Source of the DNA: Bacteroidota bacterium
GTDB lineage: Bacteria; Bacteroidota; Bacteroidia; J057
DNA length: 24,307 bases
Direction of reading: 5' to 3'
Assembly (NCBI GenBank): GCA_039197765.1
Contig: JBCCTX010000076.1
Coordinates: forward strand, 1-24,307
The translations under genes were made by a program, and so were the position numbers. This document shows, in pieces, positions 1-19,914 of this stretch. Below the pieces are notes generated by a model. The model searched no databases, was not told the DNA's origin, and was given only the letters and a program-made list of their open reading frames with translations. Positions within the stretch are counted from its first letter, which is position 1. Each line of letters opens with the position of its first letter.

Positions 1-88
1 AACCATTCACAAAAAAGTAAACGGAAAAGACACCCTTACCACCATTTCCGTTGATCCGACTACCTACATTAGCAGGTTTAGCCGGAGG

Positions 89-3000
89 TTGAACATTGGA
101 CTAGCATTGGGAAGCATACTTCAAGAATCCAATAATATTACGCTTCCTGATTATTTACTTACAGTATTGGAGAATTCATATCTTTTGAGAAGCGAATTCT
201 TTCCAGATCGTTCCCAGGTTAATTCCTCTGAATTATGGTTTTTTCCGGGAAGAAATTTCATGAACGCCCCTACCTATTTTTTAGCACCTGGACAGGATAC
301 CCTATTTTCCTCTTCACAAGTGTCTGGACAACGAATCAAATTGAAGGCTGAGCAAAATTTCTTCCTAGGATTGGGGGGGACCAAAGCGACCCGAATTTAT
401 AAACAATACCGCGATGGATCCAAGCTCCAACTACGCTTTGAGTTTCCCCAACGCAGAAGGTTAAGGTCAAATGGTCCTCAAGATAGTTCACAGGAGTTGT
501 TTATTTCTTCCTCGACCATAGAAATCTTGCAGAATGACTACGATGCAGGGTATCACTTCCCATTTTTTGAGCGGGATGGACACTTTCTGCATTTCAATGG
601 CCTCTCAAAATACTATTTGGGAGATGCCAGAGATTCTATGGCCTTCTCTATTCTCGACCAATTTAAAAGCACCATTGAACCCTCCATTAAAATTTACAAG
701 GCAGGAGAGATCATACGACTAAGTGCAACAAATTATCGTCAGATCGAGTATGTGAATTCCCTGGGCCAGAAAGCCAGTGCCATAGATGTTAAAGATAGCT
801 TGGGATTTAAGATTATGCGTACGCCTATGGGAGTGCAAGAGACGATCAGCAGAAAGGAATTGAGCACTACAGATAGTACCTCTGCAAGGATCTACCTTAA
901 AAAACACCATTGGTTGTTTTCTTTCCACGATTTATCCGAGACCAACCCCTTGAAGGTATCTTACATTTATGGCTTAATTCTGCTTTGTACCTTATTGAGT
1001 TTTATCGTACTCTTTACCAAGCAGTTGGAAGATATATCCAAAACTGAGGTGATCATCTATGCCTTACTTGTAGGATTTCTAACGCTTCGAATGGTGTTAT
1101 TGTGGCGAACAGCGACCTTCGTTCCCATAGAGGATATCGATAGCAAAGTTTTCCATAAGTTGCGCTCACCGGATTACTTCCAACATACGTTTCAAATCGT
1201 CTGCTGTTTTTATGCTTGTATCGTAGGTGCTTACCTGCTATTTCATAAGTGGGGAACCAATCCCTTAGCCAGCAGATTGAGAGTTGTCCAACTCATCCAT
1301 GAAAAGGAGGATTTCCAAACGGGTAGCCCTTTTGTGCATTGGATGGAAACATATGGCAGGTGGATTGTAGCCTTTTTGCTGAGTTGGGGACTCATTTTTG
1401 TCAGTATGTATTTCTTAGGCGATCTCGCTGAAAGATTTGTCAATATCGCTTTCCCTATCATGGGATTTTTCCTATTGGCCCTTCCCCTGTTTATTGCGTG
1501 GTCAAGTCGGGATTCTGATCAGGACCTATCTCCTTTTGAGGATAGTTTAATTTGGTTATTTGTCCTCAATTGGGCCTCCTGCTGGGTTTGGCTAGTGGTC
1601 CGGGACGCAGGGTTTTCCATTGTATTTTTGCTTTTTAGCCTGTTCAGCTTAGCCTTCTATCTAGGGATTCGGGCAGCTCGAGATGAGGATAATTCAGCTA
1701 CCCTCCGTCTACTTGCCATCGGAATCTTCTCAGGGGTAGCCCTGGGTATATTTTTTTCAACCCATTTATTAGAACATGCAATTGAATACGCTCCTGAAGC
1801 TTTCTATCTCCTCAGTGGGGGGAGCCTAGTGGGCTTAGGGTTCCTGGGAAGACAGATGTTGCGCTATCGAGAGAAGTATCCCCTTTCGGTCAAATTATTT
1901 GGAGGATTAACCTTGGCTCTTTCTCTCTGTTTAGCTGTCTTCGTAGTAGGAGTTGCCCTAGAGAAATTCGAAAATCCAGGGATTGGCGTAAAGCAGAACT
2001 ATACCTACTTGCAGTATCGGGCAGGCATCCACAACAAAAGCTTGGAGAAGATTTCGAAAGAGATAGACTTTGAGAGTAGAAAGAGCATTAAACTCCTTGA
2101 GGCCTCTCAAAACCAATGGTTTATAGACCAAATGTTGCAAAGGGATTCAGATAAGTATTTTTCCCTGCGTCGCCATTTCAACAAAGGAGCCTCCTTTATT
2201 TCCCAGACGACAGATTTGGTTGTATTGCGGTATATCATTGCAGAACATTCCCAGGAGGTAGTCCTAGGCTTGGTTTTATTATTTGGCGTGCTCTTTACTT
2301 GTATTGTATTCGAAACCAAACTGTTTGAACATGCCAATATGGGGCTTGCAGGAGTTGCGCTTCTTCTTACGATTCAGGGCTTTTTTATCTGGATGACTGT
2401 AACCAATAGATTCGCCTTCTTCGGACAAGACTTTCCCCTGTTGAGTATGCAGAGTCGAATGACCTTATTTTTCACGTTTGGCCTTTTCTTATTGATCATC
2501 TTGTTCATCCGTGAGAAGCCTGCTCAGCCCTCGGCCTCGAGTGGGGAAAGCCGTGCAGCGATAGTATCTAAAAATCAGGTTCTCACCTTTTTGTTTCTAT
2601 CCTTAATACCCGTTTTTTTCAAAGGAGGAAAGCGTTCTGGCGGTGAATCCAATCGCTTTTCCCGCTTTACCTTAGGGAAAACCTTAGAAAGTACACAAGC
2701 CAAGTTTAACCAGCTCAATGCTGAGTTTCGCACCTTTCAACGAACGACCAAAGAACGAGATCCTAAAGCGTTGGTTTTGGCCTTCGATAAGTGGGCAAAT
2801 GGGAAAGGGTTTAATTCCTATAAGGCAATAACGGATAGCTTGGGGGAAGACCAATTCACCTCTAGTGTATGGAAACATTTCCTCAGGCAGACGAGCGCAA
2901 AGAAACTCAATGATCCCAATCAAATTCTTCACCTTAAACGCCCCGAATCCCAGTACTACGAATTTGCCGTAAATAACAATTACTACCTACTAAAGACTCC

Positions 3001-5092
3001 AGAAGAGGTTGAAAATCAGTGGATGGGTTCCCTGCTTGGGGCTAAGACCCGCAGTTATTACAAATTCGTTTACAGAAACCAGACAGATCGTCCGACGGTG
3101 AAGATCTATCCAGATAAAATTATATCCAATATCTTTCAAAAAGCAGGCTTAGAGGAGAAAGATTCTGATTTGACCTATTTGAAGGAGGATATCAATAACA
3201 TCACAATATCCTCCTTACCCAAGGACTGGACCCTAAACGGGGATCCCTTGGTATTGATCAGCATAGAGTCAGGGGATGAAAACTCAAATAGAGGGAACTT
3301 TTCTATTGTAAACGACAGGTTGCGTATCAGTTCGAAGAATAATCCTGCAAGGGCATTTGCCTACCGATTGGAGCCTCGGGATTATATCAATTTGCTAGAC
3401 CATCAGGACGAAGCCATTCAGCTCAAGATGATCTCTACTGAAAAGCAATATTTGGCAAAAAACCTATGGTTAAATGGTAAACAAGAACTTTTTTATCCAT
3501 TAGGTAGGAAATCTATCTGGTCTTACAATTATGCAAACCTGTTGAAACAGACCATGGTCAAAGCCGAAAGTTTGGAGGATAAGGATGTAAATGTGTCGAT
3601 AGATTATTCCTTGAGTGAGAGCCTGTATGACCAGGTAGAGTCCCATATGCGCAAGTATGCTTCCTCAGATGCAGACTTCAGCATGGTGGCTATGGATCAC
3701 AAAGGGAGAATACGCACCCTGGTCGATTACAAGAAACCCCCTGCTTCGCAGTTTGATCCAAACAATACTAAAGAGTACTCTGAACTGTTCCAAAAATTCT
3801 ATCTGACGAGCGACCGATCATCCGAACGAAAAATATTTGGTAATCGCTGCCTCCAAAGACTGGATAATGGACCTGGATCTAGCATCAAGCCCATCATGTA
3901 CACTATTGTTACTGCTGGTTCAGGACTCAATTGGAGAAGCCTTGAGTATTTGGGGCCAGATAAAGAGGAACTCGATGCGAATCTGACCTGGAACGGGAAT
4001 GGATACCTAGTCGACCGATACGCAGGAAATAAGATGCAAGGGAGTTGGAATATCCGGAACAATGATATCCAAAGCTACAACAACCTTACCTATCTCTCCC
4101 GCTCAAGTAATATATACCACTCTCTTATCATGTTTCTGGGTTCTTACGAGAAAGAGCAACTCATTGGGCTGGGAAAATCAGGTGGGGGAAAAGAGGCGAT
4201 CTTGATTCCTGTAAGTGGTAAAGACGATAGAGACTTTCCGAAACTCAAGTTTAATGGCCGCTACTATATCCTCAATTCCGATACACATTATTGGCCAGGA
4301 ACCAGATCTGCAGGCCTGTTCAACAACCTTAACTCTGTACTAAGTAATGGATTGGCAGAAAATTTCAAGTTGGAAGTTCAAAAGCCGGTTGATCCCAACC
4401 GCTTGAAAAATCCTCGGTTCTCACCGGATATCTTACCCAGGGACCTACTGCTTTCTTCCCGGTCCTCCTACTTTATTTGGGCCTATCCAGAAATGTCGCA
4501 CTTTTATCAAATTGATAGGAGTGGGTCCAATTATGAAATTACGGGAATCCGGCAAAGCACAGTCGGGGGCTTCCCAATTGAAGTTACGCCCCTGAAAATG
4601 ACGGAGATGGGCCTGAAAATGGCTACCCTCAACAAGGAACTTTATGCTACCCTAGACACCTCAGGAATTAATACGTTTAGTCCCTTCTTCTATGATGAAA
4701 GTCCATCCAAGTGGAAAAGCCTCAAGGACTTTTACCGTTTTCATGCCCAGAATACCATGCAGGGAATGGAAGATGTCCTGTATACTTCGTCAGGGACGGG
4801 TTTCGAACTCGTTGGGAAAAAGCAGACAGAGCGGTATCACCTGTATGCAAAAACAGGTACGATCAAAGGGGAGAAATCATCCTTCAATGATAGACACCTT
4901 TTGTTCATTCTGAGTAAACGTCCTTTGACGGACCCCGAAAACTTCGGAGACTCCGAAGTCGACAATCCCATGTTCGTACTCTACATTTCCTATTTCAACA
5001 GCAGGTCTAAAAATGAAAAGCTCACTCGGAAATTAATAGAAATTGTAAAAAAATCGGATGTATTCCGCTTCACGATGGGAGATGGAAACTAA
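89..5092 (+). CDS. Giant polytopic membrane protein with a C-terminal class-B penicillin-binding-protein (transpeptidase/beta-lactamase-fold) domain. The 5' end may lie upstream of the window.
   Basis: Uninterrupted 1667-codon ORF. The frame is open from nt 2 to the first listed start (TTG at 89), so the true start may be outside the window. Layout: ~285-aa soluble N-terminal region; ~14 predicted TM helices between aa ~287 and ~860 (nt ~947-2670); ~370-aa soluble region; C-terminal domain with the three serine-transpeptidase motifs in canonical order. SxxK is at aa 1264-1267 (GPGSSIKP, nt 3878-3889; compare EPGSTVKP of FtsI). SxN is at aa 1339-1341 (RSSNIY, nt 4103-4111). KTG(T) is at aa 1588-1591 (AKTGTIKG, nt 4850-4861). 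Stop TAA at 5090-5092. Confidence 0.6.
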   Translation: MNIGLALGSILQESNNITLPDYLLTVLENSYLLRSEFFPDRSQVNSSELWFFPGRNFMNAPTYFLAPGQDTLFSSSQVSGQRIKLKAEQNFFLGLGGTKATRIYKQYRDGSKLQLRFEFPQRRRLRSNGPQDSSQELFISSSTIEILQNDYDAGYHFPFFERDGHFLHFNGLSKYYLGDARDSMAFSILDQFKSTIEPSIKIYKAGEIIRLSATNYRQIEYVNSLGQKASAIDVKDSLGFKIMRTPMGVQETISRKELSTTDSTSARIYLKKHHWLFSFHDLSETNPLKVSYIYGLILLCTLLSFIVLFTKQLEDISKTEVIIYALLVGFLTLRMVLLWRTATFVPIEDIDSKVFHKLRSPDYFQHTFQIVCCFYACIVGAYLLFHKWGTNPLASRLRVVQLIHEKEDFQTGSPFVHWMETYGRWIVAFLLSWGLIFVSMYFLGDLAERFVNIAFPIMGFFLLALPLFIAWSSRDSDQDLSPFEDSLIWLFVLNWASCWVWLVVRDAGFSIVFLLFSLFSLAFYLGIRAARDEDNSATLRLLAIGIFSGVALGIFFSTHLLEHAIEYAPEAFYLLSGGSLVGLGFLGRQMLRYREKYPLSVKLFGGLTLALSLCLAVFVVGVALEKFENPGIGVKQNYTYLQYRAGIHNKSLEKISKEIDFESRKSIKLLEASQNQWFIDQMLQRDSDKYFSLRRHFNKGASFISQTTDLVVLRYIIAEHSQEVVLGLVLLFGVLFTCIVFETKLFEHANMGLAGVALLLTIQGFFIWMTVTNRFAFFGQDFPLLSMQSRMTLFFTFGLFLLIILFIREKPAQPSASSGESRAAIVSKNQVLTFLFLSLIPVFFKGGKRSGGESNRFSRFTLGKTLESTQAKFNQLNAEFRTFQRTTKERDPKALVLAFDKWANGKGFNSYKAITDSLGEDQFTSSVWKHFLRQTSAKKLNDPNQILHLKRPESQYYEFAVNNNYYLLKTPEEVENQWMGSLLGAKTRSYYKFVYRNQTDRPTVKIYPDKIISNIFQKAGLEEKDSDLTYLKEDINNITISSLPKDWTLNGDPLVLISIESGDENSNRGNFSIVNDRLRISSKNNPARAFAYRLEPRDYINLLDHQDEAIQLKMISTEKQYLAKNLWLNGKQELFYPLGRKSIWSYNYANLLKQTMVKAESLEDKDVNVSIDYSLSESLYDQVESHMRKYASSDADFSMVAMDHKGRIRTLVDYKKPPASQFDPNNTKEYSELFQKFYLTSDRSSERKIFGNRCLQRLDNGPGSSIKPIMYTIVTAGSGLNWRSLEYLGPDKEELDANLTWNGNGYLVDRYAGNKMQGSWNIRNNDIQSYNNLTYLSRSSNIYHSLIMFLGSYEKEQLIGLGKSGGGKEAILIPVSGKDDRDFPKLKFNGRYYILNSDTHYWPGTRSAGLFNNLNSVLSNGLAENFKLEVQKPVDPNRLKNPRFSPDILPRDLLLSSRSSYFIWAYPEMSHFYQIDRSGSNYEITGIRQSTVGGFPIEVTPLKMTEMGLKMATLNKELYATLDTSGINTFSPFFYDESPSKWKSLKDFYRFHAQNTMQGMEDVLYTSSGTGFELVGKKQTERYHLYAKTGTIKGEKSSFNDRHLLFILSKRPLTDPENFGDSEVDNPMFVLYISYFNSRSKNEKLTRKLIEIVKKSDVFRFTMGDGN

Positions 5093-5103
5093 CTCTATAA
5101 TCA

Positions 5104-5643
5104 ATGAATATATTAAACGAAATTATTTCGGAGAAATTCCTGTATGCCCTCGGCTTTGGCGTTGCGATCCTACTCATCGGAATCTTTTCCAATCGTTCCG
5201 CAACATTCAATTCTCGGCATGATTTGGCAATACGAAGCGACTCTCTCCACTATCAACTCAATCCCAGGCAGTACGGTGAGATCAGGTATGAGAAATTCCT
5301 GGAGATGATCTATGGCATACAAGCGAAAAACCAGGCAATTGAAGTGGATACCAGTGCACATTTAGGGCATATCAGGATCTACTTTAAAGGAAGTGGGAAT
5401 TATTCTAAATCCTCCTTCAATCGATTCGTCTTCAACAAAATGTCTTCAGACGATTACCCAGATGTCGGGGACTTTGGTCCGTTTTTGAAAGATTCGCTAG
5501 ATATAACCTTGGGATATGAACCAGGAGTATATGGGTTAGAGCTGGAGATTAAGAAAGCACAAGGAGAAAGGTATTTACAAATCCCCTATCAAATGTTGAT
5601 TAGGTTTTTGACGCAACAAAATCAAGTCCTGGTAAAAAAATAA
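5104..5643 (+). CDS. Hypothetical small membrane-anchored protein (one N-terminal TM helix).
   Basis: 179-aa ORF starting 11 nt after the giant gene; A-rich upstream region and no SD, typical of Bacteroidota. N-terminal hydrophobic helix (FLYALGFGVAILLIGIF). No recognisable motifs. Confidence 0.55.
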   Translation: MNILNEIISEKFLYALGFGVAILLIGIFSNRSATFNSRHDLAIRSDSLHYQLNPRQYGEIRYEKFLEMIYGIQAKNQAIEVDTSAHLGHIRIYFKGSGNYSKSSFNRFVFNKMSSDDYPDVGDFGPFLKDSLDITLGYEPGVYGLELEIKKAQGERYLQIPYQMLIRFLTQQNQVLVKK

Positions 5644-5647
5644 TCCC

Positions 5648-6445
5648 ATGAAAGTAGCAAATTCTATTCAACAGGTACATGCGCTTCTGGAACAAAATGA
5701 GGTTGAGTTAGGCTTGCGGAAATTGAAACAAATTTCCCCAGAAAAGGAAGAGGAAATCGACCTGGCGGTAAAGGCATACAAAAAGGGAGGACAAAAGGCT
5801 TACCAACTGAAAAAGTATCTCCATGCAGTAGATTACTTCGAAGGAGTAAGAAAACACAGCCAATCCGAAGCCGAAAGAATTGCAGCAGAAAAAAGGATTT
5901 ATTTCTTCCTCTTCCTGCATTATTACACTAAAGGAAACTCCTTGTGGAAGTTAGGAGAGAGAGCCCCAGCTCAAAAGTACTATGAAAATGCCCAACAAGC
6001 CTATGAAAAGTATCCGGAAATGGAGGCAGAGGGAAGTGTAGCAGAGGATAAAGCAAAGGCTTACATGGAGACCTGTTTAGAAAAGATAAAAAACTATTTG
6101 CCATCGAAAGAGGGTACTTCGCCCATACCTGAACTAGCTATTCAAGTTTTTCCTGAGAAAAAAGAAGAAGTAGCCCTGGAAATAGCGCAGAAGAAATCGG
6201 AAGAGAGGCTTCCAATAGAAGCTTCCAACCCAGAGCTAGTGATAGCTGACCGAGTTCGGTTCAAGCTAGAAGTAATAGCAGGCATTGAGTCCTATAAGCT
6301 GCAAAAATTCGATTCGGCACTCCAACACTTTCGTATTGCCTGGAGTATATGTCCGCTAGATAGCCTGAGTCAATTACTCGCAAAGTGTAAGTTAGCCAAC
6401 GAACTCGTAGAGGATTTGGAAAATCTAGAGGCCTCGGAAAACTAG
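5648..6445 (+). CDS. Hypothetical soluble alpha-helical protein.
   Basis: 265-aa ORF starting 4 nt after the previous stop, which suggests translational coupling or an operon. Charged, helix-rich composition; no recognisable catalytic motif. Confidence 0.55.
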   Translation: MKVANSIQQVHALLEQNEVELGLRKLKQISPEKEEEIDLAVKAYKKGGQKAYQLKKYLHAVDYFEGVRKHSQSEAERIAAEKRIYFFLFLHYYTKGNSLWKLGERAPAQKYYENAQQAYEKYPEMEAEGSVAEDKAKAYMETCLEKIKNYLPSKEGTSPIPELAIQVFPEKKEEVALEIAQKKSEERLPIEASNPELVIADRVRFKLEVIAGIESYKLQKFDSALQHFRIAWSICPLDSLSQLLAKCKLANELVEDLENLEASEN

Positions 6446-6537
6446 AATCTCCGAGAACTATCTATTTGCCATATGCTTATTGCGATACATTCTATAAAGA
6501 CAGTTAATCCAGTTGAAACCTACAAACCAATCAAGTC

Positions 6538-7941
6538 ATGAAATGGCAATCTTTTCTATGGTACCTCGCAACTTCTGACACCCAGATTTTAAATCAGGTG
6601 GAAGACAGGACTGAACGCATTTGGCATTCTATTATCGGAACCTTTGTCCTGATTACAGGGACTTTTGCATTTATTACAGGCAGCTTTACCATGAGCTTGA
6701 TCTTAGGAGAAGGAGGTGCTTCATCCAATCTGCCACCATGGTTTGTCCCCCTTGTCTTTGGATTGATATGGGGGGTACTCATCATTACCATTGACCGCCT
6801 CCTAATTGCTTCCATCGCTACTGAAAGGAGGAATAAATACCTTGCCGCTTTCAACAAAGTGCGCAAAGAAGATACAGCGCCTACTCCCGAGGGGGAGAAG
6901 AATGCTGAGGTAAAAAATAGGGATTGGGCTAAAACTTGGATATTTGTGTGTATTCGATTGGGAATAGCCCTATTAATTTCGCTGCTTATTACCAAGCCTT
7001 TTGAGTTGTGGCTTTATCAGGATCAGATTGCCCTCGAAGCGATGAAGCAAACCCAACAGGAGCGTATGGAGTTTAAAGATAAACTGGTCGAAGACTCTAG
7101 TTTAGATTTTATCAAAGAGAATATCGATAGGGATTCTGCTGAAGTAAAGGGGCTATTTGCAGAAATAAAAAAGGCAGAATGGGTGGAGGAATACCGGGAG
7201 CTACGCAACCAAAAGCGCAGGACTATTCGAGCGAATAGTAGAGAAATACGGAAGATAGAATCCTTCGCTTATCCCCAATATTATAGGGTGGATACGAGCA
7301 AGAGACCCAGTCCTGATACCCTTTTCATCAATGCAAAAGGTGAGCAAGCGATAAAGAATTACAAAAGAAAAAACTATCAGGCTCAGAAGGATACAAGTGA
7401 AGCGAGAAAGCGTCTCTTGAACAAGGGCGTATCCAATAGCGAAATTGTTCGTATGAAAGTGGGTCCGTTGATCACCCAAGTAGAATCGCTAAAAGATTCT
7501 ATCGGTAAGCAACAGGAAGAGCGGGAGAATGAGATTGCTCAAATAGAGGCAGACTCCGATTCAAGCCAAATAATCATCCAACGTTCTATGGACGATTTAT
7601 TCGGAAAATTAGAAGCCTTGCATGCATATGTTTATGATGAAAATAACCCTGATCGAAAGTATATGAGTTGGCTTATCCTATTCATATTTTTGACCATAGA
7701 AACGCTTCCGATTGTATCCAAGATGGCTTCCTCTTCAGGGGAATATGAACGAAGACTGATATCTAGGCACCAGCTATCGATCAATCAACTCGAAAAACTG
7801 GAGTCAAAGGCTATGAGGATGGAGGAGCGCAATACCCGTAAGCGGGAAAGTATCCAAGCTCAGCTTCAGGAATTAACCCAGCTAGAACTTTCTGTGGACA
7901 CCTTTCTGTCGCAATATGACCAGGCCGTGAATGAATCCTAG
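6538..7941 (+). CDS. DUF4407-like membrane protein with a long coiled-coil region.
   Basis: 467-aa ORF. The N-terminus (FLWYLATSDTQILNQVE...IIGTFVLITGTFAFITGSF...LVFGLIWGVLIITIDRLLIAS) matches my memory of the DUF4407 N-terminal signature (W-x-L-A-x-x-D-x-x-x-L, two TM helices, then an [I/F]-x-[I/N]-D-R motif). It is followed by a ~200-aa highly charged, heptad-like region and another hydrophobic segment (YMSWLILFIFLTIETLPIV). Family assignment is from memory only. Confidence 0.55.
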   Translation: MKWQSFLWYLATSDTQILNQVEDRTERIWHSIIGTFVLITGTFAFITGSFTMSLILGEGGASSNLPPWFVPLVFGLIWGVLIITIDRLLIASIATERRNKYLAAFNKVRKEDTAPTPEGEKNAEVKNRDWAKTWIFVCIRLGIALLISLLITKPFELWLYQDQIALEAMKQTQQERMEFKDKLVEDSSLDFIKENIDRDSAEVKGLFAEIKKAEWVEEYRELRNQKRRTIRANSREIRKIESFAYPQYYRVDTSKRPSPDTLFINAKGEQAIKNYKRKNYQAQKDTSEARKRLLNKGVSNSEIVRMKVGPLITQVESLKDSIGKQQEERENEIAQIEADSDSSQIIIQRSMDDLFGKLEALHAYVYDENNPDRKYMSWLILFIFLTIETLPIVSKMASSSGEYERRLISRHQLSINQLEKLESKAMRMEERNTRKRESIQAQLQELTQLELSVDTFLSQYDQAVNES

Positions 7942-7959
7942 AAAGCGATACATATTAGG

Positions 7960-9153
7960 TTAATTTTTCGTCAGGCTAGGATCTATGGCTTTTTCATAAA
8001 GCCCTAGGCAGATCTTCATTCGTAAAATACGTTTAACAGATGCCTCATGGAGGGACATCATATCAGGAGAGTTGAGCAGTTCCTCCCTTATTTGATGGAT
8101 TAATTCAACACTAAGCTGGGGAGCTAATAGCAAGTCGTTGCCAGCTTTTAAGGCCAATAGCACAGCATTGGGAATTTCGGACACCCCCTTCATATCCATG
8201 GCATCCGTTAAAATGAGTCCTTCAAATCCCATCTTCTTGCGCAGGAGCTGTTGGATAATATTTTCAGATAAGGTAGCCGGTAATCCCTGGGTATCGTATT
8301 CACTATTCCCACGCACGCCAATATGTCCTACTAAAATGGATAATACACCTACATCTATGGCTGCTTCAAATGCAGGAAGTTCTGTGAGTTCCCCCTCTAT
8401 GAATACGGTTTCCAGGTGGCTATCTCCTTGAACCTTCCCATGTCCAGGAAAATGTTTGGCTGTTGCTACCATGCCCATCCCTTGGGTTTCTCGTATAAAC
8501 GTTTGAATGCGAGGTTTTGCTGCTGTGATTTCGTATCCAAAGGATCGCTTGGCAACCAAGCTACTGGGGGATGCAATATCGCAAACTGGAGCCAGATTTA
8601 AATGGAATCCAAGTTTGGCCAAATACCCGGTCATATCGATGGCCATTTCCTTGACATCGAAGTCAGATTCCAACTGATCTGCATAGGTGTGTAATTGGGA
8701 AGGACTCGCAGGTAGGCGAGCGTGTAAAATGCCAGGCTCTCCATCAATCATAAAAAGCAGCGGGACACCCAAGGATTGCAAATTGTACTGCCTAAATTGG
8801 GATAGGTCCGTAGCAATTTGAGACTGCTTCTCCAGAACGAGAATCCCAGCTATTTGATGTTGGGCTATTCTATGGAATAGGAGTTCGCGCTCTTGCTCGT
8901 ATTTACCCGTGTAAGCAGTAATAATTCGTTGCCCAATGCTTGCTTCCAGGCTAAGGTGTTCATACAGGGAGTCTGTCGCCTGATCTAACAAAGGATTTGA
9001 GTTGAAGAAATCCTTCAGGGTGAAAAGAGAAAGCGCATCTGTAGGCGTTAGAGAAACCGTTTCAGTTGGGGTATTTTTCGACTTTTTTGTGGGAGTCTCA
9101 CACCCAAAAAGAAATAGACCTAGTATGGTGAAGAAGGCAAGGTGATTATTCAT
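7960..9153 (-). CDS. nagZ: Glycoside hydrolase family 3 N-terminal-domain protein, NagZ-like beta-N-acetylhexosaminidase, lipoprotein.
   Basis: 397-aa single-domain GH3. KHFPGHGKVQGDSHLE matches the NagZ catalytic-region signature KHFPGHG...DSH. LGFHLNLAPVCDIAS matches GFN(L/F)N(F/L)APV(L/C)D. N-terminal lipoprotein signal (FFTILGLFLFGCETP). Convergent with, and 18 nt from, the upstream plus-strand gene. Confidence 0.8.
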   Translation of the reverse strand: MNNHLAFFTILGLFLFGCETPTKKSKNTPTETVSLTPTDALSLFTLKDFFNSNPLLDQATDSLYEHLSLEASIGQRIITAYTGKYEQERELLFHRIAQHQIAGILVLEKQSQIATDLSQFRQYNLQSLGVPLLFMIDGEPGILHARLPASPSQLHTYADQLESDFDVKEMAIDMTGYLAKLGFHLNLAPVCDIASPSSLVAKRSFGYEITAAKPRIQTFIRETQGMGMVATAKHFPGHGKVQGDSHLETVFIEGELTELPAFEAAIDVGVLSILVGHIGVRGNSEYDTQGLPATLSENIIQQLLRKKMGFEGLILTDAMDMKGVSEIPNAVLLALKAGNDLLLAPQLSVELIHQIREELLNSPDMMSLHEASVKRILRMKICLGLYEKAIDPSLTKN

Positions 9154-9179: not shown

Positions 9180-10028
9180 TTACTTATAACTTGCCAGTCC
9201 ATAATTGTAATTCTGTTGTTGATGGGCTGCGATATAGCCTTTGTAGTCCCCTTTTCTCCCATTAATTAGCAAGCTTTTGTTGAGGGAATTGAACCTCCGC
9301 TCTACTTCTGCAAGTACTTCAGGGTCATTAAGCTTATCTTGGTAGTAGGAGACGTTCCGCCAATATTTCCTATAGTTGTATTTACCTGCATAATACCTGA
9401 TAGCCATTTGAACTTTGGTCAGTCCTTTGATTCGGGGTTTATGCATGTAGCAGTGCAACATCCTTCCAGCGGCATCTATATTGTATATCGGATGAAATCG
9501 GTCGTCATGCACAATGAGTTTTTTTCGGTCGTATTTATGGGTTTGGATTAATTTTCTCAATTCTCTCCCATGCGTGGTAGAACGGAGTTTGTTAAAATTT
9601 TTGTACGTCTTTAACCCAAATTCATAAGCAGTAGACCCTTGCATATGACACAATCCGATCCCTCCATCGTCTAGGCAATTGGGCAATAGGTCGGCTCCGT
9701 GCGTCTCCTGAATAATCATAGCTAGTAAAAGGTTCCTGGGTAGGTCGTATTTGTCCTCTACCATTTCTGTAATATTCTTGAAACGCATGGATCGCAGGAT
9801 TCCTCCATATAGAATGGTTGAATGAGAAGGACTCTCAATCCCACAGTCTCCCACGGCTCCGAGCATTTTTAAATTTTTAAACGTAGGCTCGCTATGAACT
9901 TCCTCATAGGAAAAGTTATTTGTGGGCTTCGTTTTGTAGCAGGAGTTGGTAGGAGACGGGTAAGGCATGGGACTCATACTTACATGCAACAGCAAGATAA
10001 GTATGCACGCGGGGCTATTGATTTTCAT
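9180..10028 (-). CDS. Lytic transglycosylase (SLT/GH23-like domain) protein, secreted.
   Basis: 282 aa with an N-terminal signal peptide. The core LLAMIIQETHGADLLPNCLDDGGIGLCHMQGSTA matches the SLT-domain pattern (catalytic E-S/T ... G-L-M-Q). It sits 26 nt upstream of the nagZ-like gene on the same strand, so co-transcription is likely. Confidence 0.6.
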   Translation of the reverse strand: MKINSPACILILLLHVSMSPMPYPSPTNSCYKTKPTNNFSYEEVHSEPTFKNLKMLGAVGDCGIESPSHSTILYGGILRSMRFKNITEMVEDKYDLPRNLLLAMIIQETHGADLLPNCLDDGGIGLCHMQGSTAYEFGLKTYKNFNKLRSTTHGRELRKLIQTHKYDRKKLIVHDDRFHPIYNIDAAGRMLHCYMHKPRIKGLTKVQMAIRYYAGKYNYRKYWRNVSYYQDKLNDPEVLAEVERRFNSLNKSLLINGRKGDYKGYIAAHQQQNYNYGLASYK

Positions 10029-10163: not shown

Positions 10164-10937
10164 TTACCATTTTTGTATTATTCTCCTAGGTTCAGAGCCT
10201 TCAAAAAATAAGGTATCTGTCCAAAATTGGGTAGATAGGGGTTCTGTGGAGAACTCACTTTCAAACTCCTCAATGGTAATTTCTCGTAAGATGGGACGGT
10301 CTATAGGCAGGCAAAAAAAGTAGTAGGAGGTATCAAACCCGCCACTGTTTGTGAAATACCAACTTTGGTAGAATTGAGCTTCTCCCAGATTTTTGTATTC
10401 GTGTTGAAATCTTCTGAAGTTAGAATTCGTAGCTGAGGAGGTATCTATTACTTGTAAATCAATTTGAGTACTTCTTACGAGATCGAATTCAATCTCAAAC
10501 GTATCTGTGGGAAAATTCGTCGCAAATATTTCCTTTACAAGTGGTATCTCTGGATTATTAGAAGAATATGCACATCTGGGGATGTCCCAACTTACCCGAA
10601 AATAGAAAGTGTCTTTGGAAAAGAGTTCTCGGATAGAGAACTGACTGCGATTCTGCCCGAGAAAGTGGTTCCGGTAAGCGGTATCACTTACGGTAAACTC
10701 AAATTCACCCATTTCATCTGCTAGGGCTCCTGAGGATACTTCCCTTTCAAAAGTGGCTGATATTCTTGCTTTAGCGAGGTAGGCCTGCGTATCCTTGTCG
10801 AAAATTCTCCCCTTAAATACATAGGTAAAACTTTTTTGGGGGTCAAAATCTTCCTGTGGATCGTCTTCTGTACAAGCCACTATACAGGTTAAGGCAAGCA
10901 ACAAGGATTTTATAGGCTTGTGAGGGAAAAGGAACAT
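10164..10937 (-). CDS. Hypothetical lipoprotein.
   Basis: 257-aa ORF with a lipobox-like N-terminus (LLLALTCIVACTEDD). Same strand as the SLT and nagZ-like genes. No motif recognised. Confidence 0.5.
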   Translation of the reverse strand: MFLFPHKPIKSLLLALTCIVACTEDDPQEDFDPQKSFTYVFKGRIFDKDTQAYLAKARISATFEREVSSGALADEMGEFEFTVSDTAYRNHFLGQNRSQFSIRELFSKDTFYFRVSWDIPRCAYSSNNPEIPLVKEIFATNFPTDTFEIEFDLVRSTQIDLQVIDTSSATNSNFRRFQHEYKNLGEAQFYQSWYFTNSGGFDTSYYFFCLPIDRPILREITIEEFESEFSTEPLSTQFWTDTLFFEGSEPRRIIQKW

Positions 10938-11609: not shown

Positions 11610-13268
11610 CTACTTCAATACCTCAAATGTAGTAGTTTCTGTATCTTCAAAGCCAAATTCATCTTTTGCGAAGATCTCCACCGAATGAATTCCAGGTTCT
11701 AATTCTGGAAGCCTATACTGCCAGATGTGGGATGATACTGCCGGAGGTTGATAGGCATCGGGGGTATTTTCATATTTCTCGTATTCCCTTGCGTAGCCCG
11801 GGTCTGTCTGCTCGACATACTCCATGGCAATGGGGGAATCCCCATCCAAAGAGATATGAACTTCATCCCTTTCTCCTCCATCAAAGAAATTAACAACGAT
11901 ATAGGTGCTATCCTGTTGTATTCCTCGGTCTAGCTCTACCGGATTCCCTTCAAAAGGAAGTAAGGGAGGATCTAGCATTATTCGCAAGCGGTCTGTGGGA
12001 TCGCCACCTGCAGGAATAAACCTAGGGCGCATGTGGGCTCCTTCAAAATAGAACACATAGTATCCATTGGGGTTACCATCTTCCATAGTTGCCGCTCGAA
12101 CTCCGCGTTCATCACGAGGTCCTTTCTCCCAGCCACTTCCTCGAACTTCAGCCAAGGTATGGGCGATAAAAGGACGGCCGTACCATCCGTGGCGGTGATT
12201 CACCTCAACTTTCCAACTATTGCTAGTATCATGGCCTGAGATGGTATAGATGTGTTCAAATCGACTTAGGATCTTCAGAAGTTCCTTGAAATTGTCTGTA
12301 TTTATACCTTCAGGGAAAGATCTGTTGTCGGCATAAGTTATCAAGGGAATATGAGTGAGGATAATGATGAGTTTATCCGAGGGAACATCCTGCAAGTCAT
12401 TCTCAACCCATTGCATCTGAAGGGAATCTATATGCCCAATATAGCCCTGCTCTTTGCCCAGGTAACCAACATTGTTAAGCGCCAAGAAATGCACTGACCC
12501 ATAGTCAAAAGAGTAGTAATCAGGTCCAAATACACGTTTGAAGGTTTGCGTAGCCAATTGATAAGTAGGAGATTCTTGATTAAGGTCGTGATTCCCCGGT
12601 ACATTCCACATGGGGATATTTATTTGGGCCATGAGTCGGTTATGGCGCTCATAGAGAGCGAGGTTGTCGTTGACCACATCACCCGCAACCAGGCCAAACT
12701 TGGCCTCATAGGGATTGCCAAAAAGTTCGTCTATGATGTCCTTGCGCATCATGTCCAGGTCTTCGTGGGTTCCGGTTTGGGGATCGGCGAAGCCCATGGC
12801 CTTGAAAGTATCAGCAGGTGTTTCCTTAAATAAGGCAAAATCGATTCGCTCAGGCAAAGGGCCAGTAGGTTCTATCACGGGCCATTTCCAATTGGCTATA
12901 TCAGGGGTCCCTTCTGGATAGTGATGGTAGTAAAATTGAGGGAGTTGGACTTCATTGAGGGGAAGGCGGTAACTAGCAGGTTTGGAGAGGAACAAGGTTC
13001 TTCCGGGAGGAAGGGCGATTTGATAGGTACCCTGTGCATCGGTATGAACTACCTCTACTCCGTTAGAGATTTTCACATTGGGAATACCAGATTCCCCAGG
13101 GTCGTAAAGGTCGTTTTGGTTACTGTCCAGATAGACGGTGCCTTGGGCTTGTTGAGCTTGGAGAGGAACTTGTGAGAGAACAGGAATCGAAAATAGAGAA
13201 GCCAGGATTACATAGTTCACAATCCTGTGGTTTTTATTACCTATAAGGATAGGAAGCAATAAATCCAT
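11610..13268 (-). CDS. Calcineurin-like metallophosphoesterase with signal peptide and C-terminal beta-rich extension.
   Basis: Metallophosphoesterase motifs GDVVNDN (GDxxDR-like) and GNHD are present (FGLVAGDVVNDN...WNVPGNHDLN). The listed ORF extends to 13532, but that N-terminal extension overlaps the upstream flotillin gene and has no signal peptide. ATG at 13268 gives MDLLLPILIGNKNHRIVNYVILASLFSIPVLSQ, a plausible signal peptide, and removes the overlap, so the start is placed at 13268 (552 aa). Confidence 0.7.
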   Translation of the reverse strand: MDLLLPILIGNKNHRIVNYVILASLFSIPVLSQVPLQAQQAQGTVYLDSNQNDLYDPGESGIPNVKISNGVEVVHTDAQGTYQIALPPGRTLFLSKPASYRLPLNEVQLPQFYYHHYPEGTPDIANWKWPVIEPTGPLPERIDFALFKETPADTFKAMGFADPQTGTHEDLDMMRKDIIDELFGNPYEAKFGLVAGDVVNDNLALYERHNRLMAQINIPMWNVPGNHDLNQESPTYQLATQTFKRVFGPDYYSFDYGSVHFLALNNVGYLGKEQGYIGHIDSLQMQWVENDLQDVPSDKLIIILTHIPLITYADNRSFPEGINTDNFKELLKILSRFEHIYTISGHDTSNSWKVEVNHRHGWYGRPFIAHTLAEVRGSGWEKGPRDERGVRAATMEDGNPNGYYVFYFEGAHMRPRFIPAGGDPTDRLRIMLDPPLLPFEGNPVELDRGIQQDSTYIVVNFFDGGERDEVHISLDGDSPIAMEYVEQTDPGYAREYEKYENTPDAYQPPAVSSHIWQYRLPELEPGIHSVEIFAKDEFGFEDTETTTFEVLK

Positions 13269-13297
13269 GAAAAGGTAATTTAGGCTTAAACAATTTT

Positions 13298-13322
13298 GGG
13301 GGTCCTGAGGACCCCCAATTTT
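13298..13322 (-). terminator. Perfect GC-rich hairpin between flotillin and the metallophosphoesterase gene; a terminator or attenuator candidate.
   Basis: GGGGGTCC-TGA-GGACCCCC (8-bp perfect stem, 3-nt loop) at 13298-13316. On the minus strand it is followed by AAAATTGTTT, which is only partly U-rich. On the plus strand it is followed by AATTTTCC. It lies 20 nt downstream of the flotillin stop. Strand and function are ambiguous. Confidence 0.35.
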
Positions 13323-13335
13323 CCATTCATAATTT

Positions 13336-14967
13336 TCAACTTTCAATTCCCTCTTCTTCTTTTCCATTTTCCTTAATGATTTCCACCTCCACCTCTTCTT
13401 GCTGTTTCTTGGCCAGGTAATCGGGTAGTTCCAACCCTGCCATTTGGAAGAGTTCAGCCAAAGGAGGCATAGACTGATAGAGCCCTGAGATAAAGCGGGA
13501 GGTTGAAGTTCCTTCCCCATGGCCATTTCCACCTCCGCCTTCCCAGACCGTAACCTTGTCGATCTTGATATTCTTGATGGCCTCTACCTGGAGTTCTACC
13601 AATTCGGGTAATTTGTCCGCAATCATCAGCAATACCGCTTCGCGGGCCTCGCCATTGGCGGCTTTGACGATCTTATCGAATCCTTCGGCTTGCTTACTCA
13701 AGATTTCAAATAAGCCCATCGCTTCAGCTTGTCGCTTGGCCAGAATCGCATCAGCGTCCCCTTTCGCCAGTTCGCGAATGCGTTCCGCTTCTGCCTGGGC
13801 TTTGATGACGGCCTTCTGCTTTTCAATCTCTGCCTGGACGATGATGTCCGCTTGCTTTTGGGCCATTTCACGTTGGGCACGGGCCTCTTCTGCTTCTTTT
13901 TCCGCTTTGTATGCCTCTTCCAGGGCTTTGGCTTTTTGAATTTTTTCGGCAGCAGTTGCGCGGCTATTGGCTTCTGCTTCTTTTTCCCGACGCTGAGCCT
14001 CAGAATTGGCAATGGTGATTTTAGCAAGGTTTTCCCCTTCGACTGCCTGGGCGTTGGCCTCGGCTTCACCCACCTTAGCCTGTGCTTCTGCATTGGCTAC
14101 CTGAATTCTTTCTTCCTGTTTGATTTTTGCAACCCCTGCTGCTGCCAAACTATTGGCTTCCGCTTCCCTTTCACGGCGCTTTGCCTCTGAATTTGCCACC
14201 GTGATTTTAGCGAGGTTTTCCCCTTCTACAGACTGGGCATTGGCTTCAGCCTCACCGACTTTTGCGGTTGCTTCCGAGTTGGCGACTTCTACGCGCTCCT
14301 CTTGCTGGGCTTTTGCCTCTCCGATAGAGCCATCACGGGTTTTTTCGGCTACCAGTTTACGTGCCTGGTTTACGGCTTGTGCTGCTGCTTCCTTACCCAA
14401 AGCTTCAATATATCCCGACTCATCATGAATATCCGTTACGTTTACGTTGATGAGGTTGAGACCGATTTTTTTCAATTCTGAACCTACATTGGTATATACA
14501 TTTTCAACAAACTTGTCCCTGTCAGCATTGATTTCCTCTATGTCCATCGTGGCAATTACCAGACGCATTTGTCCTACTATAATATCCTGGGCCAAATCAC
14601 GGATACTCTCCATCTTGAGCCCTAGCAAACGATTGGCAGCATTTTCCATGATACCGGGTTCGTTGGAGATACCTACAGTGAAGCGCGAGGGAACATCCAT
14701 ACGAATATTCTGACGGCTTAATGCACCCGTTAAATTTACCTCTATAGATAAGGGAGTCAGGTCGAGAAACTGATAGGATTGAAAAACCGGTACGACAAAG
14801 GCTGCCCCTCCATGTATACACTTGGAAGCCCCTTGCCCCGTTTTTCCATAAACTACCAGAATCTTGTCGGATGGGCAACGCTTGTACTGAATGACAAACA
14901 ATATGAGTAGTAGGAATAAAATTCCTATCGCTACGAGCAAAACACTTGTGAAGGTTGACATGGGCAT
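13336..14967 (-). CDS. Flotillin-like SPFH/band-7 protein (YqiK/FloT-like) with EA-rich repeat region.
   Basis: 543 aa. N-terminal TM helix (VLLVAIGILFLLLILFVI). An SPFH-like core (KILVVYGKTGQG... through VGISNEPGIMENAANRLLGLKMESIRDLAQDIIVGQMRLVIATMDIEEIN) is followed by a long Ala/Glu-rich coiled region, as is typical of bacterial flotillins. It is immediately downstream of a YqiJ/NfeD-like gene on the same strand, which is the classic pairing. Confidence 0.85.
   Translation of the reverse strand: MPMSTFTSVLLVAIGILFLLLILFVIQYKRCPSDKILVVYGKTGQGASKCIHGGAAFVVPVFQSYQFLDLTPLSIEVNLTGALSRQNIRMDVPSRFTVGISNEPGIMENAANRLLGLKMESIRDLAQDIIVGQMRLVIATMDIEEINADRDKFVENVYTNVGSELKKIGLNLINVNVTDIHDESGYIEALGKEAAAQAVNQARKLVAEKTRDGSIGEAKAQQEERVEVANSEATAKVGEAEANAQSVEGENLAKITVANSEAKRREREAEANSLAAAGVAKIKQEERIQVANAEAQAKVGEAEANAQAVEGENLAKITIANSEAQRREKEAEANSRATAAEKIQKAKALEEAYKAEKEAEEARAQREMAQKQADIIVQAEIEKQKAVIKAQAEAERIRELAKGDADAILAKRQAEAMGLFEILSKQAEGFDKIVKAANGEAREAVLLMIADKLPELVELQVEAIKNIKIDKVTVWEGGGGNGHGEGTSTSRFISGLYQSMPPLAELFQMAGLELPDYLAKKQQEEVEVEIIKENGKEEEGIES
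13963..14301 (-). repeat. Internal in-frame tandem duplication inside the flotillin gene: two ~51-aa units separated by an ~11-aa linker.
   Basis: Protein units EERVEVANSEATAKVGEAEANAQSVEGENLAKITVANSEAKRREREAEANS (aa 223-273) and EERIQVANAEAQAKVGEAEANAQAVEGENLAKITIANSEAQRREKEAEANS (aa 285-335). The DNA copies are clearly similar, e.g. ...gtgattttagcaaggttttccccttcgactgcctgggcgttggcctcggcttcaccc... and ...gtgattttagcgaggttttccccttctacagactgggcattggcttcagcctcaccg... Confidence 0.8.
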
Positions 14968-15259: not shown

Positions 15260-15850
15260 TTAAAGCGGCTCCACCCGCAACATAGTATTCTGGATAACCT
15301 CCACCACCCGCACTTTGCTTCCAGTGGGGATTTCGGTTTTACTCTCTGTAATTGCTTCGATTTCTTGGTACAGGTTGCTAAAAGTAATATGGACTTTTCC
15401 CTTTCCTGATCTTGAAGGGGGAATGCGTAAATAGACTTCTCCAATTTCATCTATTGCATTGTACAAGTCGAATTTGTGTCCAGGGTCTTGCATTTTGAGT
15501 AGAAAACGCATAAGGTAAGCAGCCCCTACAAGTGCTAAAATACCCGTGAAAATTGCCCATGCTACCGAGGTGAGGAGGGGATTCCCATTAGATAATGCTG
15601 CAACTCCCGTCCAGCCAAACATCATTAAGCCTGCTAAGATGGTTTTTACAGAGAAAAAGTTGAGGTCTCCAGCTCCGTCAAAGTCTCCCCCTGCAGCATC
15701 CATATCTAAGTCGGCATCTCCATCTAGCCCTAGGAATGAAAGCAGAACCATGAGTAAAAATAAAGAGGTAGACACCAAGGCAATGCCCCAGAATACTTGT
15801 TCAGGGGCAGATAGTTCGGTCCACCAATGGGAAAATGATCCAACATCCAT
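15260..15850 (-). CDS. YqiJ/NfeD-like membrane protein, flotillin partner.
   Basis: 196 aa with TM helices. An acidic DGDADLDMDAAGGDFDGAGD stretch is characteristic of YqiJ (DUF1449)-type proteins, and the C-terminal soluble part is beta-rich. It is on the same strand as the flotillin gene and upstream of it, with a 292-nt gap. Confidence 0.65.
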   Translation of the reverse strand: MDVGSFSHWWTELSAPEQVFWGIALVSTSLFLLMVLLSFLGLDGDADLDMDAAGGDFDGAGDLNFFSVKTILAGLMMFGWTGVAALSNGNPLLTSVAWAIFTGILALVGAAYLMRFLLKMQDPGHKFDLYNAIDEIGEVYLRIPPSRSGKGKVHITFSNLYQEIEAITESKTEIPTGSKVRVVEVIQNTMLRVEPL

Positions 15851-17449: not shown

Positions 17450-17533
17450 AGAGCTTTTCCCAAATTCTATTTTTCGAACCAGAACACTACCTATTAGTTT
17501 CACTCACATTCAAAATCCCTAATTTCTTTTCCT

Positions 17534-19627: not shown

Positions 19628-19647
19628 GGGAGAGGTTAAATGGCTAA

Positions 19648-19744
19648 TAGTCCACGGTAACTCTTGATAGGGTAGTCCATAGTAACCTCTGATAGGATAG
19701 TCCATGGTTGAATAGTCCATAGTCCATGGTAACCCTTGATACGA
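19648..19744. repeat. Degenerate tandem array of a ~25-bp unit (consensus about TAGTCCATGGTAACyCTTGATAgg), roughly 4 copies, each with a CCATGG palindrome core.
   Basis: Read directly: tagtccacggtaactcttgataggg / tagtccatagtaacctctgatagga / tagtccatggttgaa / tagtccatag / tccatggtaacccttgatac. It lies in the GH32-to-isomerase intergenic spacer. Confidence 0.7.
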
Positions 19745-19760
19745 TATCAATGTACACTTT

Positions 19761-19859: not shown

Positions 19860-19914
19860 TTCATTGCTTTTCCGAATAGGGAAATGCAACTTGTGGTATC
19901 AAATCCTCTACCAC

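Follow-up and report, generated by a model that had tools for sequence, protein, structure and literature searches.

A conserved operon of Bacteroidota that links a giant membrane protein with a class B penicillin-binding module to DUF4407

We analyzed a 24,307-bp stretch of DNA, here called the window, which is a complete contig of an NCBI metagenome-assembled genome (MAG) labelled 'Bacteroidota bacterium.' Its plus strand opens with a giant gene, followed by genes for a 179-aa membrane protein, a 265-aa soluble protein, and a 467-aa DUF4407 protein. These three genes form the 3′ end of a conserved, Bacteroidota-specific, and apparently undescribed operon. Our favored reading, held tentatively and at slightly less than an even chance, is that the operon encodes an accessory machine of the inner membrane, similar to the Rod complex, that builds or remodels peptidoglycan. 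The initial annotation, made by a model from the DNA letters alone, had offered either a cell-wall-associated module or a defense-type one. The former is better supported: It is favored by a class B penicillin-binding protein (PBP) module in the giant protein and by a separate fusion of DUF4407 to a class A PBP.

The four genes of the window's block lie as follows:
2–5092, plus strand: giant gene, 3′ 90%; polytopic domain, one further transmembrane (TM) anchor, class B PBP-like pedestal and transpeptidase
5104–5643, plus strand: bitopic protein of 179 aa, family f1; one TM helix at the N terminus and a putatively periplasmic domain of ~140 aa
5648–6445, plus strand: 265-aa soluble TPR-like helical-repeat protein, family f22; no TM helix; subclade-specific
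6538–7941, plus strand: 467-aa DUF4407 protein; four TM helices, a putatively periplasmic coiled-coil stretch (152–375), and a C-terminal tail in the cytoplasm

Conservation, core, and distribution of the operon

The three genes follow the giant gene on the same strand at gaps of 11, 4, and 92 nt, with coordinates and spacing exactly as initially annotated. The same order (giant, 179-aa, 265-aa, DUF4407) is kept at the loci we number L001, L003, L004, L008, and L013, and the downstream flanks all differ. Giant proteins on homologous contigs measure 1,881–2,030 aa, and the proteins after them 159–181, 255–330, and, for DUF4407, 450–476 aa. Identity to L001 and L004 is 55% for the giant, 42–44% for the 179-aa protein, 32% for the 265-aa protein, and 42–46% for DUF4407; to L008, the corresponding values are 39%, 28%, weak, and 27%. 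Because these proteins are conserved in the same order on independent contigs, the comparison identifies the three open reading frames (ORFs) as real genes of one conserved unit. An exact-sequence look-up of the window's DUF4407 protein returned 0 contigs, and its context was taken from homologues.

Cotranscription with the giant gene, as first proposed, is likely, since the block is coconserved and the three intergenic gaps hold no sigma-70-like promoter or intrinsic-terminator match (0 in a scan not tuned to Bacteroidota promoters). Site counts across the region fall inside the range given by shuffled sequence, and the scan is uninformative for Bacteroidota. One could still suppose that nothing but adjacency ties the three genes to the giant gene. 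By our reading, the 92-nt gap 5′ of the DUF4407 gene holds a near-match to the Bacteroidota −7 promoter element, and the TPR-like and DUF4407 genes are missing from most giant-bearing loci. However, that gap is just 10–18 nt in L001, L004, and L013, the block order is kept in five to seven loci at 27–60% protein identity while the flanks change, in 63 loci the giant is followed by the 179-aa family, and DUF4407 recurs after the giant operon in a different variant. Chance adjacency is thus effectively excluded. The proposal of an unrelated defense module sitting here by chance is not supported for the three genes.

The three genes are not equivalent. On locus comparison, only the 179-aa protein belongs to the universal core of the operon: Its family lies directly 3′ of the giant in all 63 of those loci, which span Cytophagales, Chitinophagales, Flavobacteriales, and Bacteroidales, and the TPR-like and DUF4407 genes are additions of one subclade. 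Family f22 is restricted to 5 loci (window/L003, L001, L004, and L013); a distant relative occurs in L008. The DUF4407 gene follows the giant operon in 7 loci, of which one (L019), an otherwise different Spirosomataceae variant, lies outside the window's subclade; DUF4407 has therefore joined, or stayed with, the giant operon in two variants. The gene after the 179-aa family differs by clade (f2, f24, f32, and f85) and encodes bitopic proteins, all unrelated to those of the window. Comparison by hhalign found f22 unrelated to f2, f24, and f32 and ruled out all four of these fourth-position families as divergent DUF4407 or TPR-like proteins.

Clustering of neighboring ORFs defined the core as genes A (800–1,035 aa, 69 loci), B, giant, and the 179-aa family (63 loci). 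The four-gene block of the initial annotation is thus coconserved in relatives as part of a larger unit, which extends upstream beyond the contig to A and B and has a GH23/SLT-like gene as a conserved neighbor. Core operon proteins have no Pfam, NCBIfam, or PADLOC assignment. The cultured isolate Spongiimicrobium salis (L012, GCA_043678055.1) carries the core operon, which encodes A (800 aa), B (712 aa), a giant of 1,792 aa, and two proteins of 176 and 405 aa, the latter bitopic; genes for a LytS-type kinase and a LytTR regulator come next. The ATPase gene A of the window organism was recovered on no contig; positions 3–2165 of L003, 5′ of the giant, encode the C-terminal 720 aa of protein B.

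Protein A keeps all four ASKHA motifs in order (DFGSEASQ, SESDAS, IIDxGKGTTDFS, and LTGRxFLF). Its hhalign matches are to the DnaK nucleotide-binding domain (NBD; E 1.8e-5, 78% probability, 196 columns), MreB (2e-4), and FtsA (1.2e-3), with reversed controls at 0.1–0.6. It has no predicted TM helix and no Pfam match, and phmmer-type PDB searches gave only E 0.08–0.17. The motifs and the DnaK match identify A as an ASKHA-fold ATPase closest to Hsp70. Protein B, a membrane coiled-coil protein, has two helices, the first at its N terminus, with a periplasmic segment between them. Its conserved cytoplasmic C-terminal domain of ~120 aa is common to its three sequence clusters (hhalign probability 63–96%) and is plausibly a docking site for A.

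A pattern scan of one genome per species (185,579 species genomes) found the giant at 70 loci, and ~75 homologous loci were collected overall. All are from Bacteroidota apart from one contig labelled Cyanobium, which is probably mis-binned. Carriers include Dyadobacter, Runella, Persicitalea, Emticicia, and Lacihabitans (Cytophagales); Taibaiella, Edaphocola, and Sediminibacterium (Chitinophagales); and Prevotella, Paludibacter, and Alistipes (Bacteroidales). The Flavobacteriales carrier S. salis was added by a profile-based repeat of the protein search, which gave fewer matches than the single-sequence query.

The giant protein

The window holds the giant gene truncated at the contig end. Its start had been placed at position 89, but the frame is open from base 2, and a 100%-identical copy on L003, a second contig of the same organism, gives a full length of 1,895 aa (P0005); the window therefore lacks giant residues 1–199 and everything upstream. 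The features of the encoded part, all on the plus strand, are:
917–2551: polytopic membrane domain (P0005 residues ~505–1049) of ~10 helices, a ~100-aa conserved loop, and 3 helices
1103–1135: conserved polytopic-domain motif WR..TF.P.E
1604–1615: conserved polytopic-domain motif DAGF
2111–2122: conserved polytopic-domain motif NQWF
2207–2248: conserved polytopic-domain motif TTDLVV..AEH, with Asp937 at 2213–2215
2405–2455: conserved polytopic-domain motif NR..F.GQDFP..S..S
2552–5089: TM anchor (~nt 2579–2620), then class B PBP-like pedestal and transpeptidase
3878–3889: catalytic motif SSIK (SxxK)
4103–4111: catalytic motif SSN (SxN)
4850–4861: catalytic motif KTGT

Structure modelling shows a class B PBP module at the C-terminal end of the giant, anchored in the membrane and bearing the pedestal, the transpeptidase fold, and three catalytic motifs. 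The hydrophobic helix LTFLFLSLIPVFF is the membrane anchor ahead of this module. An AlphaFold2 model of the last 856 residues (predicted local distance difference test, pLDDT, 70; predicted template-modelling score, pTM, 0.69) gave 201 Foldseek matches in the PDB at E ≤ 1e-3, and the best 50 of these 201 are all class B PBPs, including PBP3/FtsI, Enterococcus faecium PBP5 (PBP5fm), and PBP2a. The top match has E 2e-10 and probability 1.0. Alignments run over 570–930 columns and so take in both the pedestal and the transpeptidase domain.

The catalytic motifs (GPGSxxKP, SxN, and KTGT) are invariant or nearly so in alignments of 15, then 72, giant homologues; in the larger set, SxxK and SxN are present in 72/72 and KTG in 71–72/72. 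Among sequence methods, hhalign against PBP2/FtsI gave E 1.9e-4 (47% probability), Pfam Transpeptidase (PF00905) stayed below threshold (E 0.13, 11.8 bits, cut-off 22.1), and the PDB, searched with a sequence profile of the complete giant alignment, yielded no PBP, only chance matches to cytochrome oxidase subunit 2. The name 'SLC5/6 family protein' that NCBI gives to the S. salis homologue was supported by none of our scans.

The polytopic domain is preceded by two further helices and, at the N terminus, by a ~470-aa domain of unknown fold. The overall layout—polytopic domain, loop, three TM helices, linker, anchor, pedestal, and transpeptidase—is that expected of a fusion between a SEDS protein and a class B PBP (bPBP). 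Natural single-ORF SEDS–PBP fusions are stated to exist (PMC10449877), and the giant resembles them in placing its polytopic domain before the anchor. That this domain is SEDS-like is the most probable reading rather than a demonstrated one, and direct homology evidence is weak. No SEDS match was found in Pfam (including FTSW_RODA_SPOVE, PF01098), in NCBIfam, or by PDB sequence profile; Foldseek of the membrane-domain model against the PDB gave 0 matches, and hhalign against a two-sequence SEDS profile found nothing.

We enlarged the SEDS profile to 10 sequences using plasmid-borne SEDS genes (a scan of viral contigs for SEDS gave none). Against it, the 72-sequence giant profile scored a marginal 25.2 (P 0.013, 3% probability, 83 columns). 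All 30 column shuffles scored lower (22.2 at most), as did the reversed profile (17.3) and two unrelated polytopic proteins, MraY (14.2) and an MFS transporter (16.9). The register of this alignment, which is not significant, sets TTDLVV..AEHG on HTDFIF..EELG, Asp937 on Asp262 of Escherichia coli RodA, and GQDFP..S opposite G..LP..SYGGS. Asp937 is invariant (72/72) and lies ~12 residues before the next helix.

Comparison with the SEDS–class B PBP synthases RodA–PBP2 and FtsW–FtsI places these features in context. The giant shares with them the class B fold, the pedestal, the single TM anchor, and SxxK/SxN/KTG. In its predicted layout, the polytopic domain also resembles SEDS proteins: Three helices come after a large conserved loop, and an invariant Asp lies ~12 residues ahead of the first of these helices. 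Unlike SEDS, it has ~13 predicted helices rather than 10 and goes unrecognized by the Pfam family or Foldseek; it is also three to five times as large as RodA or PBP2, sporadic, and restricted to Bacteroidota. Like the Rod complex (mreBCD–mrdAB) and the divisome, the operon coencodes an ASKHA ATPase, membrane coiled-coil or bitopic proteins, and a PBP synthase. Its ATPase differs, however, in size (800–1,035 aa) and in lying nearest to the Hsp70 NBD rather than MreB/FtsA. Where RodA–PBP2 and FtsW–FtsI have MreBCD/RodZ or FtsA/QLB/N as partners, the giant has this Hsp70-like ATPase and unrelated bitopic proteins; no MreC, MreD, RodZ, or FtsQLB homologue was detected.

DUF4407 and its ties to peptidoglycan synthases

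The initial annotation had recognized DUF4407 from an N-terminal pattern, and the Pfam profile PF14362 bears this out: The 467-aa protein matches at E 1.6e-37 (129.9 bits, cut-off 31.3), with residues 24–407 on model positions 8–293 of 297. Its homologues P0001–P0004 carry the same precomputed domain. The match to the family runs end to end with the same TM–coiled coil–TM layout, and the window's coiled coil is ~90 residues longer than the model's. A glycine-rich EADGTGGSG..G.GP..K.K segment in the middle of the 'coiled-coil' region is common to canonical DUF4407 proteins (alignment A8); by eye, the window protein has no EADGTGGSG motif of this consensus. Close homologues are few. A word-indexed search gave 4 proteins, and exhaustive phmmer gave 607 representative clusters at E ≤ 1e-3, only 4 of them at E ≤ 1e-30, which places the window protein on a small divergent branch.

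Hydropathy puts the four TM helices of the protein at residues ~28–55, 72–90, 133–151, and 376–394. Between the third and fourth lies a charged stretch of ~225 aa, with 41 K/R and 41 D/E in residues 152–375. This coiled coil is most likely periplasmic, judging from a related protein (P0133, described below) in which DUF4407 precedes a class A PBP. Class A PBP membrane anchors cross from inside to outside; because the fused anchor in P0133 runs this way, the C terminus of DUF4407 would be cytoplasmic and the coiled coil between TM3 and TM4 periplasmic. Loop charges agree with this topology (0 K/R in loop 56–71, 10 in loop 91–132). The layout had earlier been likened to mechanical or sensor proteins, and a periplasmic coiled coil departs from the cytoplasmic 'mechanical sensor' tail of that comparison.

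P0133/P0171 is a single 1,082-aa ORF that joins DUF4407, a TM anchor, GT51 (EDRRFYQHFG), and a transpeptidase (STFK, SEN, and KTGT), and by its domains and motifs is a complete class A PBP fused to DUF4407. It came from a Pfam scan of the 20 longest or N-terminally extended of 148 DUF4407 representatives. The fusion has two full-length members on at least 6 contigs from two sources (ENA and JGI) and is therefore no assembly artefact. At the level of sequence, it is a link of DUF4407 to peptidoglycan synthases independent of the giant operon. A second natural fusion, P0093 (Moorena sp.), joins DUF4407 to an SPFH/Band_7 domain; the window's own Band_7 gene, 5.4 kb 3′ of the DUF4407 gene, is probably a coincidence.

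The literature searched mentions DUF4407 only in gene lists, with no described function, and holds no description of the giant family or of a PBP–DUF4407 link; the pairing, which the initial annotation did not know to be described, is absent from it. Class B PBPs and SEDS–PBP fusions are already known, and the giant family and its tie to DUF4407 are undescribed in that literature.

These findings bear on whether the substrate is peptidoglycan at all. Another lipid-linked envelope polymer might be made, or secreted proteins processed by a serine-acyl-transferase domain, with the small proteins as substrate-specific helpers. The penicillin-binding fold serves esterases and peptidases too, the giant's membrane domain matches no known family, its transpeptidase scores below the Pfam threshold, and some variants are flanked by surface proteins sorted by the type IX secretion system (T9SS; Por_Secre_tail, Ig-like, and PKD). 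These T9SS-sorted neighbors are limited to closely related genomes and therefore reflect shared synteny. Given that the fold match is specific to class B PBPs with a pedestal, that a GH23-like muramidase is a conserved neighbor, and that DUF4407 is fused elsewhere to a class A PBP, we regard a nonpeptidoglycan substrate as very unlikely.

The wider DUF4407 family was sampled at 119 metagenome loci with a hand-made degenerate IFNLDRYIV pattern, which captures canonical members only. Their contexts are varied and mostly chromosomal: 12 loci in ruvC synteny, ~9–15 in an operon with a GH18 enzyme and with an nSTAND1 NTPase nearby, and ~6 directly after an M56 BlaR1-like gene, which in four is preceded by a ~120–145-aa ORF.

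The 179- and 265-aa proteins have no recognizable catalytic motif, and neither has DUF4407, as initially noted. The 179-aa protein has a single hydrophobic helix at residues 12–30; most members of its family have a K/R-rich N terminus, and in Bacteroidales the family is fused to a Transglut_core domain. It has no match in Pfam, NCBIfam, PADLOC, or PDB. The f22 profile of the 265-aa protein scores E 2.6e-5 against consensus TPR proteins, with one repeat (positions 202–230) accounting for most of the match; the protein itself is below threshold against Pfam TPR_2 (E 0.0038, 17.7 bits, cut-off 27).

Operon variants, neighboring genes, and function

Operon variants differ mainly in accessory genes. 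In the Spirosomataceae type (L015–L019), one to three caspase-like Peptidase_C14 genes lie between B and the giant, and the operons are headed by genes for an ECF sigma factor and a TPR protein; C14 genes flank the giant operon in L014 and L009/L018. Pairs of LytS-type kinase and LytTR regulator adjoin the Emticicia and Spongiimicrobium loci. Such envelope-stress-type regulators beside other variants fit an envelope function.

The same regulators could instead belong to an envelope-stress sensor of the BlaR1/MecR1 type, in which the PBP-like domain would bind muropeptides or β-lactams and signal to the ATPase, proteases, and gene expression, with the three small proteins as adaptors. We consider this unlikely. 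The giant does resemble BlaR1/MecR1 in being a membrane protein with an extracytoplasmic penicillin-binding-fold domain, proteases are frequent among the accessories, and canonical DUF4407 lies directly 3′ of the M56 BlaR1-like gene in the ~6 loci above. Yet sensors of this type use a class D β-lactamase-like domain without a pedestal, whereas the giant matches class B PBPs including the pedestal. It contains no M56 or other protease domain, the conserved core has no DNA-binding output, and a 13-helix domain with many invariant periplasm-facing polar residues exceeds what a transducer would need.

The Bacteroidales variants (L005–L007, L024, L032, L063, L071, and L078) carry an extra ~785-aa protein 5′ of A, and in L007 the operon starts after a NusG-like gene. 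In most of these loci, the 179-aa family carries a fused transglutaminase core; in L071 it stands alone, and in L078 it does not cluster with f1. L007, L024, L032, and L063 also encode an M50B-like membrane protein, and all of the variants end in a BrxL homologue (f19, Lon-like; PADLOC E 3.5e-138). A BrxL-family protein is a point of likeness to bacteriophage exclusion (BREX) systems, but the operon holds no other BREX gene, and BrxL is missing from the window's variant and most loci.

This modularity might instead reflect an antiphage or conflict system, in which the PBP-like domain would sense wall damage by phage lysins or injection, the ATPase and proteases would transduce the signal, and DUF4407-type effectors would disrupt the membrane in abortive infection. 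Occurrence is sporadic over four orders with flanking genes that differ between loci, paralogous systems are paired within genomes (L018/L023, L026/L054, and L020/L082), the accessories change fast and include C14 peptidases and a true BrxL homologue, an nSTAND1 NTPase sits beside one class of canonical DUF4407 operons, and every protein is fast-evolving and unannotated. Against this, the core, the three small proteins, and the fourth-position families match none of 5,027 PADLOC models (PADLOC-DB 2.0); there is no nuclease, methylase, or other BREX component (PglX, PglZ, or BrxC); the window's DUF4407 protein has no tblastn match among 72,556 plasmids and 50,697 phages; sampled canonical DUF4407 contexts are mostly chromosomal housekeeping synteny; and the class A PBP fusion ties DUF4407 to a bona fide synthase. 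Catalytic motifs in all or all but one of the 72 PBP domains, together with strict conservation of residues in the membrane domain, point to an enzyme over a decoy sensor. We hold a defense function to be fairly unlikely but still, like the sensor reading, a serious competitor of the favored one.

Two genes for putative wall-related enzymes lie beyond the DUF4407 gene in the window:
7960–9153, minus strand: GH3 N-terminal-domain protein, NagZ-like, with a lipoprotein-type N terminus (Pfam E 1.2e-47)
9180–10028, minus strand: 282-aa secreted GH23/SLT-like protein, family f30, resembling goose lysozyme and lytic transglycosylases

The f30 protein is 57% identical to a same-strand gene directly 5′ of A in L004 and L013, so that a GH23/SLT-like gene is conserved beside the operon in two different positions. 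Its scores are subthreshold (Pfam SLT, E 0.005, 16.8 bits versus 21.3; best PDB matches goose-type lysozymes, E 0.19), and within this below-threshold match it aligns with goose lysozyme on the catalytic Glu (QET) and a G.GLCHMQ motif. The GH3 gene converges on the DUF4407 gene with 18 nt between gene ends; because it lies beside the operon only in the window/L003 organism, it is probably outside the unit, although a wall-sugar enzyme.

For an accessory machine of peptidoglycan synthesis or remodelling, the parts might work together as follows. The polytopic domain would be a very divergent SEDS-type (GT-C) polymerase of lipid-linked glycan, making the giant a single-chain polymerase–transpeptidase with Asp937 in the role of RodA Asp262. 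Cytoplasmic A, docked on the C-terminal domain of B, would position or activate the complex, comparable to MreB/FtsA acting via RodZ/MreC/FtsN. The 179-aa protein may set a small periplasmic domain beside the pedestal of the PBP, acting there as an obligatory factor for regulation or assembly. DUF4407 would hold four helices in the membrane and extend a coiled-coil hairpin of ~225 residues into the periplasm, where it could couple the synthase to the wall or gauge distance, as Wzz copolymerases do with Wzy. The cytoplasmic TPR-like protein may connect the Hsp70-like ATPase with either DUF4407 or the giant, and the GH23-like enzyme would cut open existing wall for insertion.

The comparison with Wzz concerns layout only. 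Wzz/PCP copolymerases are inner-membrane proteins that act on a polytopic lipid-linked glycan polymerase (Wzy); DUF4407 likewise places a long periplasmic coiled coil between TM helices and is encoded with a polytopic protein, but has four helices versus two. More broadly, the operon may encode a third kind of peptidoglycan machine beside the Rod complex and divisome, with a single-chain divergent SEDS-like polymerase–bPBP and an Hsp70-like ATPase, and with DUF4407 proteins as general periplasm-spanning partners of synthases; this is possible but doubtful.

Several observations weigh against a wall-synthesis machine. The varying, protease-rich accessories (C14, transglutaminase-like, M50B-like, and BrxL/Lon-like) are more typical of conflict systems, and no lipid II or Mur genes are adjacent to the operon. 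ATPase A resembles Hsp70 more than it does the actin-like proteins that form filaments. The giant family is sporadic at 70 loci, and two different operon variants can share one genome: L018/L023 (Lacihabitans MAG), L026/L054 (Emticicia sp. W12TSBA100-4), and L020/L082 (Emticicia MAG). Canonical DUF4407 contexts vary, with a direct PBP link in just one fusion family. The structure models are of medium confidence (pLDDT 64 and 70) and were built on 16-sequence alignments, and only topology and context underlie the functions assigned here to the 179-aa, TPR-like, and DUF4407 proteins. The C14 genes inside the operon are a separate observation that a wall-synthesis model leaves unexplained.

The rest of the contig holds genes apart from the operon. 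A flotillin-like Band_7 protein (543 aa; 13336–14967, minus strand) has a long Ala/Glu/Lys-rich repetitive tail that coincides with a GC peak of 0.51 and an AT skew of −0.38 at 13.5–14.5 kb. A metallophosphatase ORF (11610–13532, minus strand) overlaps it by ~200 nt, and the L003 call (585 aa) suggests a later start. NfeD-type partners usually sit beside flotillin genes; here, a 196-aa membrane protein (15260–15850, minus strand) adjoins. That protein and those at 10164–10937 (minus, 257 aa), 20849–22735 (plus, 628 aa), and 23452–24261 (minus, 269 aa) have no Pfam match at E ≤ 1e-4. A cluster for fructan or sugar utilization (16067–20832, plus strand) comprises an MFS sugar transporter, a GH32 enzyme (697 aa), and a xylose-isomerase-like TIM-barrel protein, with a 25-bp tandem repeat (2.4 copies, 19647–19705) in the gap 3′ of the GH32 gene. 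Far-flank genes for malic enzyme, RDD, ACP phosphodiesterase, β-lactamase-family, DJ-1/AraC, and DinB proteins were rejected as components because they reflect synteny that close relatives have in common.

The variant with DUF4407 has so far been seen in MAGs only. The core system occurs in cultured organisms (S. salis, Dyadobacter sp. CY261, Runella salmonicolor S5, Persicitalea jodogahamensis, and species of Emticicia, Taibaiella, and Edaphocola), so the hypotheses are directly testable. Should the defense reading hold, the operon would be a large new wall-sensing system. If the cell-wall reading is true, it would widen the known range of cell-wall synthases and β-lactam targets in a phylum that spans gut, rumen, and environmental species. 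It would likewise give a first functional foothold for DUF4407, a family of hundreds of representative clusters with no described role that is tied to PBPs in two independent ways, by membership of the giant operon and by the class A PBP fusion, and for four unannotated families: A, B, the 179-aa protein, and the fourth-position proteins.

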